Shown here: piece by piece, positions 43,800 to 50,118 of the stretch | How positions within the stretch are numbered: position 1 is the first letter of the stretch | Layout of the letters: the number at the start of each line of letters is the position of its first letter | The notes under the pieces: model-generated | Seen by the model: the letters and a program-made list of their open reading frames with translations, nothing else | What the model was told of the DNA's origin: nothing | The model's database searches: none | Assembly: GCA_028285105.1 (NCBI GenBank) | Contig: JANQQE010000029.1 | Location: forward strand, 40,256 to 104,255 | Direction of reading: 5' to 3' | Origin: Alphaproteobacteria bacterium | GTDB lineage: Bacteria > Planctomycetota > Phycisphaerae > UBA1845 | Length of the DNA stretch: 64,000 nucleotides | Made by a program: the position numbers and the translations under genes

Positions 43800-44642
43800 T
43801 CACCCGGTAGAGCAACTGGCATCATCGAAAAATGTTCCCGTTGCTTGCCAGAGCGATTCCAGGCGATCGATACGCTCCCGAGCATCATCACCCAGCAAAA
43901 CAGCGGCGCGGGCGACGATGAGTTCGGCTGCTACGACTGCGGGCACGGAACTGTCGAACGGTCCGACTGCCGGAATCTTCAGGTGCCCCCATGCATGCGA
44001 GATTTGCGCAATCGGGGAAAGTGGTCCGTCGGTAATCGCGAGGATCTTGACGCCTTCATCGGCCAATGCCCTGGCTGCCGTAATCGAGTGACGCCGGTAG
44101 CGACTGAAATCGAACACGACCGCAGCTTCGCCGGCGCGGGCCCCGGCCAAATCCCTGCCCATTTCGTACTCGGTGACCAGTCGAACATCCGACCTGAGCA
44201 TCGACAATCCCGCATACAACGTGTGTGCCCCCGCCAACGAAGTCTCGCCGGAAAGGATCCAGACATGAGCCGCTTCGACCATCGGTTGAACCAGTGCGTC
44301 AAGTCGCCGATCGGTGAGCGACTCGAACACGTCGTAGACGGCTTCGAGCACCGATCGACGAAGCGGACCGGCTTCCTGCTGTTGCCGAATGCGATGGCTC
44401 GGTCTTGAGAGTTGATCTGAAACTTGGTCTCGTTCTTGCGCCTGGAGGTCCGAATACCCTTCGAATCCCAACTTCATCGCGAACCGCACGATGGAAGGCC
44501 GACTGGTGCCAACACGGTCGGCCAACTCCGAGACCGTCCCAAACGCGAGCAACGTCGGATTTTCCATTACTGCTTCGGCGATTCGACGTTCGGTCGGGGT
44601 GAGGCGGTCGCCCGCAGTCGCGATGAGATCCTGGATGGACAA
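43800..44642 (-). CDS. MurR/RpiR-family transcriptional regulator (HTH + SIS)
   Basis: LTPTERRIAE...TVSELADRVGTSRPSIVRFAMKLGFEGYSDLQ; SIS motifs VFDFSRY, ILAITDGPLSPIA. Confidence 0.92.
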   Translation of the reverse strand: MSIQDLIATAGDRLTPTERRIAEAVMENPTLLAFGTVSELADRVGTSRPSIVRFAMKLGFEGYSDLQAQERDQVSDQLSRPSHRIRQQQEAGPLRRSVLEAVYDVFESLTDRRLDALVQPMVEAAHVWILSGETSLAGAHTLYAGLSMLRSDVRLVTEYEMGRDLAGARAGEAAVVFDFSRYRRHSITAARALADEGVKILAITDGPLSPIAQISHAWGHLKIPAVGPFDSSVPAVVAAELIVARAAVLLGDDARERIDRLESLWQATGTFFDDASCSTG

Positions 44643-44665
44643 TCAAAGCCCCTTTGGTCATTTTG

Positions 44666-44703
44666 TTGCATAAACTTATTCAAAGTGTACACTATGTTAC
44701 ACT
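44666..44703 (+). promoter_or_regulatory. Sigma70-type promoter overlapped by a palindromic operator
   Basis: TTGCAT(44666)-N16-TACACT(44688); perfect inverted repeat AGTGTA-N8-TACACT (44684-44703) in the 101-bp gap between the RpiR gene and the operon. Confidence 0.6.
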
Positions 44704-44743
44704 GAGGTCCACAAGAATTTGGTATCGACCCGGAGTTCTTCTC

Positions 44744-46210
44744 ATGATCCAGAAGCTGAAACACATCCCGACGGCGCGCGAACAGGCTTTTCTCGACACC
44801 GTCGAGGATACGCAATACCAGCGCGACATCATCAACGGACTCTCACCATTTTTCGATGAAAAAGCGCCTGCGGACATGCTTCAATTCTATTCCAAAGGCG
44901 AAGTCGCCTCGCTCCGCGTTCTCAAGGGGACCGACCGCGATGTCGAAGATCGCATGCCGGTCAAGATTACACGTCACTATTACGAGTTGGCGAAGAACTC
45001 AGAACCGATCAGCCGAATCGTCAAAGCCAGCCCGGACGAAACGGACAACCTTCAGGGTTCTGAAGACCCCGGTTTTCAAATGGACTATGCGCCGGTCGAA
45101 GGGCTGCTCCACAAATACGAAATGGGCTTGATGTACGTCATCTCGACATGCTCTGCACACTGTCGATTTTGTTACCGCGAAGAACTCATCGCCCGAAAAG
45201 ATATTGAACGGCAGGACGGGACCGTTGCCAAGAAGGGTCTGGCACAGATTCCCGAGATCATCGCATACATCAAAGAACACAATGACGCGGTGGAAGCCAA
45301 CGGTGGTCGTCACCCCGAAAGCGGACGCGAGAAACTCCGAGAGATTCTCCTGTCGGGTGGTGACGCCATGGTCCTTGGCAATTCCAAACTTGCCGCATGG
45401 TTCGGTGCGCTTGCCGAAGCCGGGATCGAATCCATCCGCGTCGGAACCAAGGAGATGGCGTTCTACCCCCAGCGCTTCGACCGCACGCTGCTTGAAATGC
45501 TCGACCGATTCCATGAAACGTACCCGCAGGTCGGGATGCACTTCATGCTTCACTTTCAGCACCCCGACGAAATTCTTGCCAAGGATGCTGACGGAAACTA
45601 CATCGAGGATGAAAAGGGCTTCAAGCAGTGGATTCCGGAAACCGGCGAAGCAATGCGCGGGCTGGTCTCGCGCGGGTGGCTGACTGTTGAAAATCAGGCA
45701 CCGATCATCAAAGGCATCAACGACGATGCCGATGCACTTCGCATTCTCCAGCGAGAATTCAAACGCGCTGGCGGAGAGAACCACTACTTTTTCTGTGGCC
45801 GCGATATCGTCGCATACAAAGCGTTTAACATTCCCATCGAAGAGGCGTGGAGTATTCTCAACACGTCCCAGAGGGGTTTATCCGGTGTAGAATGCCACGC
45901 CAAACTTTCGATCACGCACTACAAAGGCAAGACCGAAGTGGCGGCAGTGACCAACGAACCGATTCCGGGCCTTGCCGGTTCCGAAAACGGTGTCGTGATT
46001 TTCAAGATCCTGCGTAATGCCGGTAGCGCGCCAGACAAAGGAAAGGTCTGCATCGTCGGCCGCAACCCCAATGCCGTCTGGTTCGACGATTACGAAGACC
46101 GTGTCCTCTTCGATGAAGCCGGTTTGTATAATTACGACCGAGTGAAGAAATCGGGTGAAGCGCCGAGTAGTTGTTCGGCTTCCGCCGGCAAACCAGGGTG
46201 TGCGGGATGA
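44744..46210 (+). CDS. KamA-family radical-SAM/PLP amino acid 2,3-aminomutase, probably non-lysine substrate
   Basis: EGLLHKY, CSAHCRFCYR (CxxxCxxC plus Arg), LLSGGDA, HFQHPDEI, NQAPIIKGIND, GKTEV (PLP Lys); ATG 44744 with GGAG SD. Confidence 0.85.
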   Translation: MIQKLKHIPTAREQAFLDTVEDTQYQRDIINGLSPFFDEKAPADMLQFYSKGEVASLRVLKGTDRDVEDRMPVKITRHYYELAKNSEPISRIVKASPDETDNLQGSEDPGFQMDYAPVEGLLHKYEMGLMYVISTCSAHCRFCYREELIARKDIERQDGTVAKKGLAQIPEIIAYIKEHNDAVEANGGRHPESGREKLREILLSGGDAMVLGNSKLAAWFGALAEAGIESIRVGTKEMAFYPQRFDRTLLEMLDRFHETYPQVGMHFMLHFQHPDEILAKDADGNYIEDEKGFKQWIPETGEAMRGLVSRGWLTVENQAPIIKGINDDADALRILQREFKRAGGENHYFFCGRDIVAYKAFNIPIEEAWSILNTSQRGLSGVECHAKLSITHYKGKTEVAAVTNEPIPGLAGSENGVVIFKILRNAGSAPDKGKVCIVGRNPNAVWFDDYEDRVLFDEAGLYNYDRVKKSGEAPSSCSASAGKPGCAG

Positions 46211-46917
46211 TCGACAAGCGTGTGAACACGCCGCATGAAGTGGTCGCCGACATCTTCGACGGTGCGACCATCATGATTGGCGGGTTTGGGGAAGCGGGCA
46301 GTCCGGTCGAGTTGCTCCATGCGATCATCGATCAAGGTGCATCCGACCTGACGATCATAAGCAACAACACCGGTTCGGGCGAAGTCGGTCTCGCGGCGCT
46401 CATCAAAGTCGGGCGGGTTTCAAAAGCGATCTGCTCCTATCCGCGCACTGCCAACTCGACTGTTTTTGCAGAACTCTATCGAAGCGGTCGCATCGAACTC
46501 GAACTTGTTCCGCAGGGTACGTTGGCTGAACGCATTCGTTGCGGTGGTGCGGGGGTGCCGGCGTTTTATACCGCAACGGCCGTCGGTACCCCGCTGGCTG
46601 AGGGTAAGGAACTGCGCGAGTTTGAAGGCAAGCAATACGTACTAGAGCGGGGCCTTCGAGCAGACTTTACGATCATCAAGGCCCGCACTGCCGACGTTCA
46701 CGGTAACCTTTTATACAACAAGACGGCCCGCAATTTCGCGCCGATCATGGCGACGGCATCGAACTGTACGATCGTGCAGGCGCAGGATGTCGTTGAGGCA
46801 GGCGACATCGATCCGGAAACCGTTGTGACGCCCGGTTTGTTCGTAGATCGTGTTGTTCAAGTCGCAGAACCAGCCCACGAATCCGAACTTGTCGCCGCCG
46901 GAGCTTCCTACCCATGA
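46207..46917 (+). CDS. pcaI: 3-oxoadipate CoA-transferase subunit A-like
   Basis: IMIGGFGEAGSP, SNNTGSGEVGLAAL, CSYPRTANSTVFAELYRSGRIELELVPQGTLAERIR, ARNFAPIMA; ATGA coupled. Confidence 0.85.
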   Translation: MIDKRVNTPHEVVADIFDGATIMIGGFGEAGSPVELLHAIIDQGASDLTIISNNTGSGEVGLAALIKVGRVSKAICSYPRTANSTVFAELYRSGRIELELVPQGTLAERIRCGGAGVPAFYTATAVGTPLAEGKELREFEGKQYVLERGLRADFTIIKARTADVHGNLLYNKTARNFAPIMATASNCTIVQAQDVVEAGDIDPETVVTPGLFVDRVVQVAEPAHESELVAAGASYP

Positions 46918-47597
46918 CCAGCAAAGATTCGAAAGCGGGTTGGTCGCGCGAGGAGATGGCTGCCCGTCTTGCTCAAGACATTCCCAACGGGTCGTATGTG
47001 AACCTTGGCATCGGTATTCCTGAACTCGTTGCCAGATTCGTACCCGAAGACAAGACGCTCATCTACCACACCGAGAATGGCTTGATTGGAATGGGCCCTT
47101 CACCGGAAGCGGGACAAGGCGATCCTGAACTGATCAATGCAGGCAAGCGTCAAGTCACGGCGATGCCCGGTGCGGCATACTTTCATCACGCCGACAGTTT
47201 CGTCATGATTCGTGGTGGACACATCGATCTGTGTGTCCTCGGTGCGCTTCAGGTCGCGCAAAATGGCGACCTCGCAAATTGGTCCACCGGTCAGCCCGAC
47301 GCAATACCGGCGGTCGGTGGTGCGATGGACCTCGTCGCAGGGGTCAAGTCCATCTACGTCATCACCCAGCACACAACCAAGCATGGCGATCCAAAACTCG
47401 TCGAATCCTGTACGTATCCACTGACCGGGCTTGGCGTGGTCGATCGCATTTACACGAACCTCGCCGTCATCGAAGTGACGCCGGATGGGTTTGGCGTCAG
47501 CGAACTCAGTCCGGGTATCGATTTCCAAGACGTGCAAAACCAAACCGGCGCTCCACTCAGCGATATCCGCGAAAGCGCGACGGCAAACAACCCATGA
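46914..47597 (+). CDS. pcaJ: 3-oxoadipate CoA-transferase subunit B-like
   Basis: YVNLGIGIP, HTENG (catalytic Glu), LINAGK, YFHHADSF.MIRGGH, IPAVGGAMDL, CTYPLTG; ATGA coupled. Confidence 0.85.
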   Translation: MTSKDSKAGWSREEMAARLAQDIPNGSYVNLGIGIPELVARFVPEDKTLIYHTENGLIGMGPSPEAGQGDPELINAGKRQVTAMPGAAYFHHADSFVMIRGGHIDLCVLGALQVAQNGDLANWSTGQPDAIPAVGGAMDLVAGVKSIYVITQHTTKHGDPKLVESCTYPLTGLGVVDRIYTNLAVIEVTPDGFGVSELSPGIDFQDVQNQTGAPLSDIRESATANNP

Positions 47598-48916
47598 ACA
47601 CACGAACCGATCTCTCGCGTTGCGCCGATCTTTTTGCTCGGGCGCAGAAAGTTCTACCGGGTGGCGTTTCACGTAACACAGTCTTACGTTCACCCTATCC
47701 CGCGTATGCAGACTACGGAAAAGGTTGCCACGTCACCGATCTTGACGGGGTCACACGCATCGACTTCTCCAATAACATGGCCTCCCTCATCCACGGGCAC
47801 GCCCATCCCGAAATTGTCCGGGTCGTCAACGAGCAGATGGCCCGCGGCTCGGCATTCATGCTGGCGACTGAGGTTGAAGTGCAGTATGCGGAACACCTGT
47901 GTTCACGCTCGCCTTCGTTCGACATGCTGCGATTTGTAAACTCCGGGACCGAAGCCATCATGGTCGCGATCAAAGCCAGTCGTGCATTTACAGGTAAATT
48001 TAAAGTCGCAAAGGTGGAAGGTGCCTACCACGGAGGGTACGACTACGCGGAAGTCTCGCAAGCGCCGACACCGGAGACATGGGGCAGCCACGACAAACCG
48101 CACTCAGTGCCTCTGGTGCATGGCACGCCAGAGTCTTCGCTGCGCGACGTCGTGATCATTCCCTTTAACGACACCGACCGGGCCATCAAGATCTTAAACG
48201 AACACGCCCACGAGGTTGCCTGCGTTCTGCTCGATCTCATGCCGCACCGAGTCGGATTGAATCTCGTCAAGCCGGAATACATCGAAGCAATACAGAAGTG
48301 GGTTGCCGATCACGACGCCCTCCTGGTACTCGACGAAGTTATTACCTTTCGTTCTGAGTACGGCGGACTGCAAACTCGCTATGGCATCAAGTCTGACCTC
48401 ACTGCTCTTGGCAAGATGATCGGCGGCGGTTTTCCAGTCGGCGCCGTCGCGGGCCGGGCCGATGTCATGGACGTCCTTAATCCCAAATCGCACCGGTTCC
48501 TGTTCCCTCACTCCGGCACGTTTTCGGCCAACCCGATTTCGATGTCGGCGGGTTTGATGGCGATGGCGTTATTCGACCAGAAGGAGGTCGCGAGACTGAA
48601 CGCCCTGACCGATCGTGCGATTGACGGTATCAGAAAAGCCATCGACACCACGGGAGCCTGCGCGTGCGTCACGGGCGGTGGATCGATGTTGCGCGTTCAT
48701 ATGAAAGAAGAACCACCGCACAATTTTCGCGAAGCATTCAATACGGACGCCGAGAAAATGCGATTGGCCACGCTGCTCGATCACCTGTTCTCCGAGGGCT
48801 TTATCATGATCAACACCTGCTCGGCGACGCTTTCAACGCCCATGACGGAAATCGAAATCGATGCGCTCGTTGCGGCCATGGAATCAGGACTCGCAAAGAT
48901 CGCGTCAATGCCTTAG
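47594..48916 (+). CDS. Class III PLP aminotransferase (HemL-like fold, not HemL)
   Basis: ATG 47594 with ATGA coupling; LPGGVSRN, RFVNSGTEA, GAYHGGYD, LDEVITFR, DLTALGKMIGGGFPVGA, HSGTFSANP. Confidence 0.9.
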   Translation: MNTRTDLSRCADLFARAQKVLPGGVSRNTVLRSPYPAYADYGKGCHVTDLDGVTRIDFSNNMASLIHGHAHPEIVRVVNEQMARGSAFMLATEVEVQYAEHLCSRSPSFDMLRFVNSGTEAIMVAIKASRAFTGKFKVAKVEGAYHGGYDYAEVSQAPTPETWGSHDKPHSVPLVHGTPESSLRDVVIIPFNDTDRAIKILNEHAHEVACVLLDLMPHRVGLNLVKPEYIEAIQKWVADHDALLVLDEVITFRSEYGGLQTRYGIKSDLTALGKMIGGGFPVGAVAGRADVMDVLNPKSHRFLFPHSGTFSANPISMSAGLMAMALFDQKEVARLNALTDRAIDGIRKAIDTTGACACVTGGGSMLRVHMKEEPPHNFREAFNTDAEKMRLATLLDHLFSEGFIMINTCSATLSTPMTEIEIDALVAAMESGLAKIASMP

Positions 48917-50118
48917 GCCTTCGAGAAAATCGTGGCAAGACCTTGCCCAACGCCAACACACAATGAAGCGATTCCTCGTTCAACGCCTCGTCGACTCATC
49001 TCGTGGATCAGCGTTGTCGCGATCCGTGTACCGCTGCATCCGAGCGGGTGTCCAATTGCAATTGCGCCACCGTTTACATTGAGTTTGTCGTCAGTGATCT
49101 TGAGGTCGCGCTGACAAGCGATCGACTGCGCGGCAAAGGCTTCGTTGATTTCAACAAGTCCGACATCGTCAAGTGTAAGCCCCGCCCGATCCAATGCCTT
49201 GCGGATCGCCGGTACCGGTCCAAGTCCCATGTAAGCCGGGTCAACGCCGGCTGACGCACTGCAACCGACGAATGCGATGGGTTTCAAACCCAGCGCCGCT
49301 GCTTTTGATTCTTCGACGATCAGCAAGGCGGCTGCCCCATCGTTCACGCCCGAAGAATTCCCAGCCGTCACAGTTCCTTTGTCATCCTTTGCAAACACGG
49401 GGCGGAGTTTGGCCAACTGCTCCATGGTCACGTCGGGCCGGGGATGCTCATCTGTATCCACGACCAGCGCCGGTCCTTTTCGCTGAGAAATTTCAACCGG
49501 CACGATCTCATCGTTAAATGCGCCTTGCTTCTGCGCTTTTGCCCACTTCTGTTGGCTCGACAACGCAAATCGATCCTGCGATTCTCGATCGATTCCGTAT
49601 TTGCGTGCCACATTCTCCGCTGTCTCACCCATCGGAAACGGGTGATGCTTCTCAGCCAACTTTGGATTTACAAAGCGCCACCCGATGGACGTGTCGTAGA
49701 TTTGTTGTGTCCGACCATATGCATTCTCGGACTTGCTCAGCACGTATGGGGCACGGCTCATCGACTCGACTCCGCCAGCCACAAACACATCGCCGTGATT
49801 CGCCTCAATCATGCGGGCTGCGATGTTGATGGCTTCAAGCCCCGAAGCACACAGACGATTGACCGTTGACCCCGGAATCGTCTCGGGGAGTCCGGCGAGC
49901 AATGCGGCCATCCGCGCGACATTGCGGTTGTCTTCACCAGCCTGGTTGGCGGCACCGAAGTAGACATCGTCGATCAGCGAAGACTCGATGCCTGATCGCT
50001 GGATGACAGCGCGAATGACGGTGGCAGCAAGATCATCGGGCCGAACCGTAGCAAGCCTTCCACCAAATCGTCCGACCGGCGTGCGGACAGCAGCAATAAC
50101 AGCAGCTCGACGTTTCAT
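48913..50118 (-). CDS. pcaF: Beta-ketoadipyl-CoA thiolase-like (PcaF/PaaJ family)
   Basis: VRPDDLAA, ANQAGEDNRNVARMA, TVNRLCASG (Cys), TSIGWRFVNP, NEAFA, GGAIAIGHPLG, SLCVGVGQG. Confidence 0.85.
   Translation of the reverse strand: MKRRAAVIAAVRTPVGRFGGRLATVRPDDLAATVIRAVIQRSGIESSLIDDVYFGAANQAGEDNRNVARMAALLAGLPETIPGSTVNRLCASGLEAINIAARMIEANHGDVFVAGGVESMSRAPYVLSKSENAYGRTQQIYDTSIGWRFVNPKLAEKHHPFPMGETAENVARKYGIDRESQDRFALSSQQKWAKAQKQGAFNDEIVPVEISQRKGPALVVDTDEHPRPDVTMEQLAKLRPVFAKDDKGTVTAGNSSGVNDGAAALLIVEESKAAALGLKPIAFVGCSASAGVDPAYMGLGPVPAIRKALDRAGLTLDDVGLVEINEAFAAQSIACQRDLKITDDKLNVNGGAIAIGHPLGCSGTRIATTLIHEMSRRGVERGIASLCVGVGQGLATIFSKA

Follow-up and report, generated by a model that had tools for sequence, protein, structure and literature searches.

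We propose that a six-gene locus at positions 43800-50118 of the window, by which we mean the whole 64,000-nucleotide stretch of contig JANQQE010000029.1 analyzed here (assembly GCA_028285105.1, deposited as an Alphaproteobacteria bacterium and placed by GTDB in the class Phycisphaerae of the Planctomycetota), is an RpiR-controlled catabolic module for lysine-derived L-2-aminoadipate. The locus encodes a regulator of the RpiR family, a KamA-like radical S-adenosylmethionine (SAM)/pyridoxal 5'-phosphate (PLP) aminomutase, the two subunits of a coenzyme A (CoA)-transferase, a HemL-like class III aminotransferase and a PcaF/PaaJ-like thiolase. We regard the full scheme as likely, and we hold it with considerable confidence once a variant in which the CoA ester is transaminated is counted with it.

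In the first step of this scheme, the KamA-like enzyme would shift the amino group from C2 to C3 and so convert 2-aminoadipate to 3-aminoadipate, with Arg353, which replaces an amine-binding Asp of lysine 2,3-aminomutase (LAM), holding the distal carboxylate. The HemL-like aminotransferase would then strip the β-amino group from 3-aminoadipate to give 3-oxoadipate, the PcaIJ-type CoA-transferase would convert this to 3-oxoadipyl-CoA with succinyl-CoA as the donor, and the PcaF/PaaJ-like thiolase would cleave 3-oxoadipyl-CoA to acetyl-CoA and succinyl-CoA. The predicted net reaction is 2-aminoadipate + amino acceptor + CoA → succinate + acetyl-CoA + amino acid, and it would involve no oxidative decarboxylation. 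The scheme is stoichiometrically closed since thiolysis would regenerate the succinyl-CoA that the transferase consumes. These substrates and products, the order of the second and third steps and the CoA donor are inferred, and the route as a whole is supported by three features, namely the linkage of the module to lysine enzymes, the charge-reversed pocket of the aminomutase and the resemblance of the downstream enzymes to PcaIJF.

Observed directly are the gene content, translational coupling and synteny of the module, the catalytic motifs of its enzymes, the LAM-like fold of the aminomutase and the linkage to enzymes that form 2-aminoadipate, and it is this last feature, the gene context in relatives, that provides the strongest support for 2-aminoadipate as the substrate. 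L-lysine 6-transaminase and piperideine-6-carboxylate dehydrogenase, the latter of which yields 2-aminoadipate, carry out the classical steps from lysine to 2-aminoadipate. In two loci from Chthoniobacterales (L041 and L007; loci fetched from other genomes carry L numbers), the genes for these two enzymes are followed in the same direction by those for the KamA-like enzyme, CoA-transferase subunits A and B and the aminotransferase. The pair lies ~2 kb upstream of the module in L058, whereas the modules of L148-L151 and L153 are oriented toward a string of genes for lysine 6-transaminase, the dehydrogenase and a PcaF-like thiolase; a further genome that bears the module has this string on one of its contigs (L152). 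Both enzymes were scored in two of these loci. In L041 the transaminase reaches 565 bits and the dehydrogenase 789; in L148 the values are 581 and 779 bits, and the cut-offs are 520.8 for the transaminase and 730 for the dehydrogenase. The dehydrogenase was also scored in L104, from a planctomycete of another family, where it is the convergent neighbor of the module (736 bits against 730). Recurrent fusion or adjacency of the module to these two enzymes favors a C6 substrate. The first-pass annotation, made from the sequence of the window, had put forward 2-aminoadipate as the substrate, and the Chthoniobacterales modules, which are ~80% identical to that of the window and are fused to or face lysine 6-transaminase and the dehydrogenase, support this proposal independently.

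The distribution of the dehydrogenase points in the same direction. It is encoded in 15 of 17 module-positive Planctomycetota versus 23 of 40 module-negative ones (Fisher p = 0.03, uncorrected for phylogeny) and in 47 of 50 further module-positive genomes. One of the two module-positive genomes without it has an in-frame stop in the aminomutase gene and the other is an 84%-complete metagenome-assembled genome (MAG), and no intact module was present in those families in which the dehydrogenase was found to be missing. At least one genome without the module (L129) also encodes the transaminase/dehydrogenase pair. Genes for an acyl-CoA dehydrogenase and a FadB-like hydratase/3-hydroxyacyl-CoA dehydrogenase flank the cluster in L148 (11292-12473) and L041 (2737-6727), and these might represent a parallel branch of the glutaryl-CoA type.

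Organization, regulation and spread of the module

All six genes were confirmed at 43800-50118, and the features of the locus are as follows.

43800..44642, minus strand: RpiR/MurR-family regulator (HTH_6 and SIS domains), divergent from the operon
44663..44704, plus strand: conserved promoter/operator region, from the intergenic alignment; operator role predicted
44744..46210, plus strand: KamA-like radical-SAM/PLP aminomutase, 488 aa (KamA family model, profile match to 2A5H, AlphaFold2 fold)
46207..46917, plus strand: 3-oxoacid CoA-transferase subunit A, PcaI/ScoA type (TIGR02429)
46914..47597, plus strand: 3-oxoacid CoA-transferase subunit B, PcaJ/ScoB type (TIGR02428)
47594..48916, plus strand: HemL-like class III aminotransferase (Aminotran_3; hemL model under cut-off)
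48913..50118, minus strand: PcaF/PaaJ-like 3-oxoacyl-CoA thiolase (best models are 3-oxoadipyl-CoA thiolases, under cut-off)

Pfam and NCBIfam models match the gene set originally claimed (RpiR, KamA-like, CoA-transferase A/B, class III aminotransferase and PcaF-type thiolase), and the ATGA start/stop overlaps reported at 46207, 46914 and 47594 are exact and join the four core genes. The thiolase gene had been described as abutting this operon. It does neighbor the aminotransferase gene, but the two do not merely abut: they are convergent and overlap by 4 nt (48913-48916, TTAG), a tetranucleotide that contains the stop codons of both, so there is no space for a terminator between them. In the close relatives L001-L003, tblastn matches for the aminotransferase and thiolase lie ~15-140 nt apart. 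ATG 44744, which gives a protein of 488 aa, is the most likely start of the aminomutase and is preferred to the upstream TTG 44654, since the ATG and a GGAG ~8 nt ahead of it are kept in orthologues. An Rfam scan gave no match.

The regulator matches Pfam HTH_6 (52.6 bits) and SIS (33.5 bits). A divergent RpiR gene is kept in the Phycisphaerae loci and in other classes of Planctomycetota, and RpiR is also encoded in L111/L112, loci of unrelated lineage, and on the P0123 contig. In the window, TTGTTGCA at 44663-44670 is followed by AGTGTACACT-AT-GTTACACTG at 44684-44704. Alignment of 29 spacers between the RpiR and aminomutase genes shows conservation of TTGTTGCA-N~13-(A)GTGTACAcT-N2-GTTACAG between variable flanks. 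The TTGTTGCA box and the (A)GTGTACACT-N2-GTTACAG box recur in ~28 Phycisphaerae loci and probably represent the promoter and a putative RpiR operator. A consensus scan for promoters and terminators was empty, and its sigma-70 part gave nothing at 44663-44704.

Conservation of the module was assessed by scanning prokaryote genomes, one for each species, and this returned 407 stretches encoding relatives of the aminomutase; the best 80 were fetched as loci. These best 80 of 407 belong to Phycisphaerae/Phycisphaerales and to Verrucomicrobiota, mostly Chthoniobacterales, at 76-92% identity, and in all 80, as far as the contigs reach, the order KamA-like enzyme, CoA-transferase A, CoA-transferase B, aminotransferase is kept. 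This arrangement is far beyond chance. The Phycisphaerae loci usually include the divergent RpiR gene and the convergent thiolase gene as well, and the verrucomicrobial loci carry an orthologous thiolase gene 3-7 kb downstream. Seven further loci, from other families and classes of Planctomycetota, retain RpiR and the four-gene core, and in a more distant form of the module (L111/L112) RpiR is followed by all five enzymes in the same direction. The combination of KamA, PcaIJ, class III aminotransferase and thiolase noticed at first in a single sequence thus co-occurs in two phyla and beyond. Nevertheless, the module is sparsely distributed: it is present in 11 of 401 sampled Planctomycetota genomes, in 10 of 251 in the class and, within the family, only in the genus to which the window belongs. 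Its proteins are ~75-80% identical between Planctomycetota and Verrucomicrobiota. Patchy distribution together with high identity across phyla agrees with horizontal transfer of an accessory module. Carriers that are cultured or have complete genomes include Phycisphaerales bacterium ac7 (CP159477) and Mesorhizobium sp. 113-3-3.

Two variant arrangements deserve mention. In several verrucomicrobial operons (L007, L009, L012, L014, L019 and others), small genes are inserted between the CoA-transferase A/B genes and the aminotransferase gene. They encode a 23S rRNA intervening-sequence protein, a PDDEXK_3 nuclease, an NYN-domain protein, and an M78 peptidase with a 'Beta protein'; the insertion points vary between MAGs and the flanking operon genes are intact. 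The inserted genes belong to selfish or defense-type families and do not encode enzymes of the pathway. On a plasmid of Mesorhizobium sp. 113-3-3 (L126; NZ_AP023244.1, 335214-341137), genes for the aminomutase (65% identical), the ferredoxin FdxA and the aminotransferase (54%) stand in a row. Downstream are genes for two CoA-transferase-like subunits, an unclassified pair distinct from that of the module, and for a GbdR-like regulator, and the locus adjoins a BREX defense system. Encoded between the two enzymes, the ferredoxin could plausibly supply electrons to a radical-SAM enzyme in an aerobic host.

The enzymes and the choice of substrate

The aminomutase is a divergent, unnamed subfamily of KamA, as judged from its sequence. 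It scores 86.2 bits with the KamA family model TIGR00238 (cut-off 199.2) and 69-81 bits with the equivalog models for the lysine, glutamate and arginine aminomutases and EpmB (cut-offs 369-650), and it has no Pfam match. When a profile of the family was searched against solved structures, the sole match was lysine 2,3-aminomutase (PDB 2A5H, E 1.5e-96). An AlphaFold2 model of the enzyme (predicted local distance difference test score, pLDDT, 84.5; predicted template-modeling score, pTM, 0.85) likewise has 2A5H as its best fold match in a Foldseek search of the PDB (target-normalized TM-score 0.63-0.67, E 1e-15), and the next radical-SAM folds, at E >= 2e-5, are ten orders of magnitude behind. 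The cluster motif C136-SAH-C140-RF-C143 (CxxxCxxC) is invariant in 29 relatives and 81 orthologues, and an SGGD motif is present. In both profile and MAFFT alignments, Arg145 corresponds to LAM Arg134, which binds the α-carboxylate, and Lys396 to the PLP-binding Lys337 of LAM. Among the 29 relatives Lys396 shows almost no variation, and all 81 orthologues have both residues. Conservation within the family is unusually high, with 52% of alignment columns at least 98% identical across the 81 sequences. The same alignments place Arg353 at the position of LAM Asp293 and Ser389 at that of LAM Asp330, and both replacements are invariant in the 81 orthologues. These replacements argue against lysine and favor a distal anionic group in the substrate. 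Its motifs and modeled fold suggest a functional PLP/SAM aminomutase whose substrate is something other than lysine. The first-pass annotation had allowed that the enzyme might turn over lysine only, and the apparent loss of both ε-amine-binding Asp residues speaks against this.

This also bears on a route in which the aminomutase acts first on lysine, giving β-lysine, after which the 6-transaminase and the aldehyde dehydrogenase oxidize the ε end to 3-aminoadipate and the pathway ends in the same way. The same set of enzymes would serve such a route, and Joint Genome Institute (JGI) annotations label orthologues as lysine 2,3-aminomutase. We find it barely credible, given that both Asp residues that bind the ε-ammonium group in LAM are replaced here, that all lysine 2,3-aminomutase and EpmB models are far under cut-off, and that the transaminase/dehydrogenase pair in module-free L129 fits a canonical role for these two enzymes.

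Copies of the aminomutase also occur in other settings. In L109/L110 (Acidimicrobiaceae) and L092, a copy that is 68% identical stands alone between serS/PNPOx and an oxidoreductase gene. These loci also contain cytochrome oxidase genes, and within ~10 kb neither a CoA-transferase nor an aminotransferase is encoded; the partners may lie in another part of the genome, or else the β-amino acid is put to a different use there. Distant KamA-like relatives (36-48% identical) adjoin sucCD, pdxJ/acpS or rnc/era, which are housekeeping-like contexts that, like serS/PNPOx, give no clue to the substrate. For example, in L083/L084 a relative that is 45-48% identical and has Arg at the position of LAM Asp293 directly follows sucC-sucD (succinyl-CoA synthetase).

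The CoA-transferase belongs to family I of the 3-oxoacid CoA-transferases, in which PcaIJ acts on 3-oxoadipate and ScoAB on acetoacetate. Subunit A scores 336 bits with TIGR02429 (cut-off 128.5) and is 60% identical to PcaI of a Rhizobium pcaR-pcaIJF operon versus 44% to Escherichia coli AtoD, and subunit B scores 293 bits with TIGR02428 (cut-off 243.55) and is 54% identical to Rhizobium PcaJ versus 41% to E. coli AtoA. Subunit B contains HTENGLIG, and we take this TENG-type motif to be the site of the catalytic Glu in the family. The closest plasmid homolog of the CoA-transferase (65%) is found in L091 (Tistrella mobilis pTM2, 338788-345218), where the neighborhood encodes a homolog of piperideine-6-carboxylate dehydrogenase (55% to the L104 enzyme), a DUF1338 protein, presumably of the HglS family, and an aminotransferase, but no aminomutase. 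L091 looks like another 2-aminoadipate context that lacks the aminomutase.

The thiolase has Thiolase_N (297 bits) and Thiolase_C (160 bits) domains and contains NRLCASGL, NEAFA and GHPLGCSG, which we assume to be the motifs with the catalytic Cys, His and Cys. Its best models are those for 3-oxoadipyl-CoA thiolases (NF006551, 564 bits against a cut-off of 605; TIGR02430, 559 against 597), which score at least 70 bits above all others; the generic C-acyltransferase model gives 491 bits, and models of the AtoB and BktB types are at least 100 bits below the 3-oxoadipyl-CoA thiolase models. The enzyme is 53% identical to E. coli PaaJ (427 bits versus 346 bits to AtoB) and has GWRFVNP in common with it, and named β-ketoadipyl-CoA thiolases (the 6PCA series) take ranks three to five among its matches to solved structures. 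The thiolase of L111 is non-orthologous, being only 50% identical to that of the window, and is also PcaF-like, which suggests from sequence that the same type of thiolase was recruited independently in this form of the module.

The aminotransferase matches Pfam Aminotran_3 (178 bits), and its best NCBIfam model is hemL, at 321 bits against a cut-off of 527. The true hemL of the same genome is on another contig, C24, and scores 606 bits. By these scores the enzyme is a paralog of HemL and not HemL itself, and we rule out the latter identity. Among solved structures it lies nearest to 6K8H, an entry described no further than as a class-III aminotransferase, and to ForI, glutamate-1-semialdehyde aminomutase (GSAM) and β-phenylalanine/β-transaminases, and its translation includes LGKMIGGG, a PLP-Lys motif of the GSAM type. 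We predict that it is a transaminase for the β-amino acid 3-aminoadipate.

The order of the second and third steps could also be the reverse, in which case the CoA-transferase would make 3-aminoadipyl-CoA, the HemL-like enzyme would transaminate the CoA ester, and the thiolase would follow. The order of the genes, in which the CoA-transferase A/B genes come between those for the aminomutase and the aminotransferase, agrees with this variant. There is also a precedent in Kat, the 3-aminobutyryl-CoA aminotransferase of a variant lysine fermentation, which is a HemL-like class III enzyme that adjoins a thiolase and acts only on CoA thioesters, thereby avoiding a labile free β-keto acid (PMC3149608). 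We nonetheless think the reverse order unlikely, as the CoA-transferase is 54-60% identical to PcaIJ, which uses a free 3-oxoacid, and the structural neighbors of the aminotransferase that are named, GSAMs aside, are β-transaminases. Enzymes of this kind are known to act on free β-amino acids.

The module in its own genome

Several observations weigh against 2-aminoadipate as the substrate. First, both the aminomutase and the thiolase are under the curated equivalog cut-offs. Second, Arg353 may not contact the substrate and cannot by itself fix its identity; it is not specific to the module, since Arg at the position of LAM Asp293 is common to many distant KamA-like proteins in unrelated contexts. 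Third, RpiR/SIS regulators usually sense sugar phosphates and would be unexpected for an amino-acid pathway. Finally, the upstream enzymes are not assembled at this locus. The dehydrogenase of the genome, at 809 bits, is encoded on another contig without lysine-catabolic neighbors, and no lysine 6-transaminase at or above cut-off was found in the genome. Saccharopine-dehydrogenase-like genes (PF16653) are not enriched either, being present in 5 of 10 module-bearing versus 9 of 20 other Planctomycetota, and the copy in this genome is isolated next to ispD. For the window itself, 2-aminoadipate is assigned on the strength of orthology (~80% identity) to the modules fused to lysine enzymes and of the dehydrogenase that the genome encodes.

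A related difficulty is that a long basic residue at the Asp293 position could, by analogy, suit glutamate equally well. Glutamate 2,3-aminomutase is reported to have a Lys there, which Arg353 would resemble. In this alternative, L-glutamate would be converted to β-glutamate and then to 3-oxoglutarate, and the pathway would end either in cleavage of 3-oxoglutaryl-CoA to acetyl-CoA and malonyl-CoA, or in decarboxylation to acetoacetate followed by formation of acetoacetyl-CoA and of 2 acetyl-CoA. With 2-oxoglutarate as the amino acceptor, the net effect would be cleavage of 2-oxoglutarate. RpiR regulators commonly control central carbon metabolism, with which glutamate agrees, and no transporter or upstream enzyme is conserved beside the module in Phycisphaerae, as would be expected for a central metabolite. 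However, the recurrent linkage to lysine 6-transaminase and piperideine-6-carboxylate dehydrogenase indicates a C6 substrate, thiolases of the PcaF/PaaJ type were apparently recruited twice, the glutamate 2,3-aminomutase model gives only 77 bits against a cut-off of 650, and succinyl-CoA would not be regenerated. Based on these points, we judge glutamate to be a very unlikely substrate and continue to favor 2-aminoadipate.

The content of the genome also bears on the direction of the pathway. All four reaction types are reversible in principle and the proposed substrate is derived from context, so the module might instead work in the synthetic direction, from succinyl-CoA and acetyl-CoA to 2-aminoadipate, or act on a different amino acid such as 2-aminobutyrate, 2-aminopimelate or diaminopimelate. 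The genome encodes lysA above cut-off and hence makes lysine by the diaminopimelate route, which leaves an aminoadipate route to lysine unneeded. Furthermore, the module is a patchy accessory trait with a dedicated divergent regulator and with linkage to the catabolic lysine 6-transaminase and piperideine-6-carboxylate dehydrogenase. We consider this group of alternatives highly improbable, and we rule out a biosynthetic (reverse) role toward lysine on account of lysA and the rarity of the module.

Two familiar pathways were likewise ruled out. Classical lysine fermentation is excluded as this genome (97.8% complete) has no match to BKACE/Kce and the aminomutase lacks the lysine-binding pair of Asp residues. 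As to the aromatic β-ketoadipate pathway, to which it had been conceded that PcaIJF might belong, the best match in the genome to the 3-oxoadipate enol-lactonase PcaD scores 156 bits against a cut-off of 255.85 (ring-cleavage genes were not scanned for across the window), and the CoA-transferase always accompanies the aminomutase. Those refuting conditions of the first-pass annotation that sequence analysis could address all turned out in favor of its interpretation. Elsewhere in the genome, contig C13 (L125, 15387-18312) encodes the α and β subunits of a 2-oxoacid:ferredoxin oxidoreductase. This may point to a facultatively anaerobic way of life, in which a radical-SAM step that is sensitive to oxygen would be well placed.

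Novelty and comparison with known systems

The first-pass annotation knew of no described pathway with this combination of genes. Our full-text search of the literature for the enzyme combination, for 3-aminoadipate and for β-glutamate/3-oxoglutarate routes found none either, and in the literature searched '3-aminoadipic acid' is not mentioned in connection with a pathway. The enzyme families are known and the logic echoes that of lysine fermentation; the specificity of the aminomutase, the 3-aminoadipate intermediate and the pathway as a whole appear to be undescribed. On balance, we lean toward the view that a radical-SAM/PLP L-2-aminoadipate 2,3-aminomutase and a dedicated 3-aminoadipate transaminase form an undescribed, oxygen-independent branch of lysine degradation that bypasses 2-oxoadipate and glutaryl-CoA and has spread horizontally among Planctomycetota, Verrucomicrobiota, probably Acidimicrobiia and even a rhizobial plasmid. 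If this is true, C6 dicarboxylic amino acids would be a new class of substrate for radical-SAM aminomutases, 3-aminoadipate would gain its first metabolic role, and lysine degradation would have a new end that proceeds via the two terminal enzymes of the β-ketoadipate pathway and involves neither an acyl-CoA dehydrogenase nor an oxidative decarboxylation. The widespread annotation of these proteins as 'lysine 2,3-aminomutase', 'glutamate-1-semialdehyde aminomutase' or 'hypothetical' would then need to be corrected. The enzymes are potentially useful for the biocatalysis of β-amino diacids and adipate-family chemicals, and the carriers ac7 and Mesorhizobium sp. 113-3-3 make the idea directly testable.

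Among known aminomutases, the closest comparison is with LAM/KamA (Clostridium subterminale, 2A5H) and its relatives AblA, EpmB and the glutamate and arginine 2,3-aminomutases. The window enzyme shares with them the CxxxCxxC and SGGD motifs, the Arg that binds the α-carboxylate, the PLP Lys and the fold, and its predicted chemistry is the same 2,3 shift of an α-amino group. It differs in being ~21-28% identical and under all curated cut-offs, in having Arg and Ser in place of Asp293 and Asp330, in an insertion after the cluster motif and in a different C-terminal domain. In addition, the MAFFT alignment shows the loop that precedes the PLP Lys to be shorter by one residue and to have no GGGG run. 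The predicted substrate, a C6 dicarboxylic amino acid, differs as well. The GSAM-like β-transaminases of Mesorhizobium and Variovorax (2YKU, 4AO9), together with 6K8H and ForI, belong to the same class III subgroup as the aminotransferase of the window and are its closest solved structures. The window enzyme stands apart from them by a predicted substrate that is an aliphatic dicarboxylic β-amino acid and by its operon with an aminomutase.

At the level of whole pathways, lysine fermentation and its Kat variant employ KamA, KamDE, Kdd, Kce, Kal or Kat, AtoAD and a thiolase (PMC3149608). A radical-SAM 2,3-aminomutase, a HemL-like β-transaminase, a two-subunit CoA-transferase and a thiolase are common to the Kat variant and the module, and in both a lysine-derived skeleton is taken to acetyl-CoA (PMC3149608), in the case of the module by prediction. 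In contrast, the genome of the window has no Kce/BKACE, its aminomutase is apparently not a lysine enzyme, and the C6 dicarboxylic skeleton would end as succinyl-CoA and acetyl-CoA rather than as butyrate and acetate. No KamDE- or Kdd-like gene is a recurrent neighbor of the module in the fetched loci.

With the lower β-ketoadipate pathway (PcaIJ and PcaF) the module shares the two enzyme types, at 52-60% identity to Rhizobium PcaI, PcaJ and PcaF, as well as the predicted reactions and the regeneration of succinyl-CoA. Here, however, 3-oxoadipate would come from an amino acid and not from the cleavage of an aromatic ring, and there is no enol-lactonase above cut-off; the regulator is RpiR, whereas an IclR-family regulator lies beside pcaIJF in Rhizobium; and the thiolase is slightly under the PcaF equivalog cut-offs. 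Finally, canonical catabolism of 2-aminoadipate, which runs from a transaminase through 2-oxoadipate to glutaryl-CoA or through HglS/DUF1338 to 2-hydroxyglutarate, has the same entry metabolite and the same upstream lysine 6-transaminase and dehydrogenase, which in Chthoniobacterales are linked to the module. The route that we propose would differ from it in deaminating at C3 after a shift of the amino group, and it would need no oxidative decarboxylation, glutaryl-CoA dehydrogenase or oxygenase.

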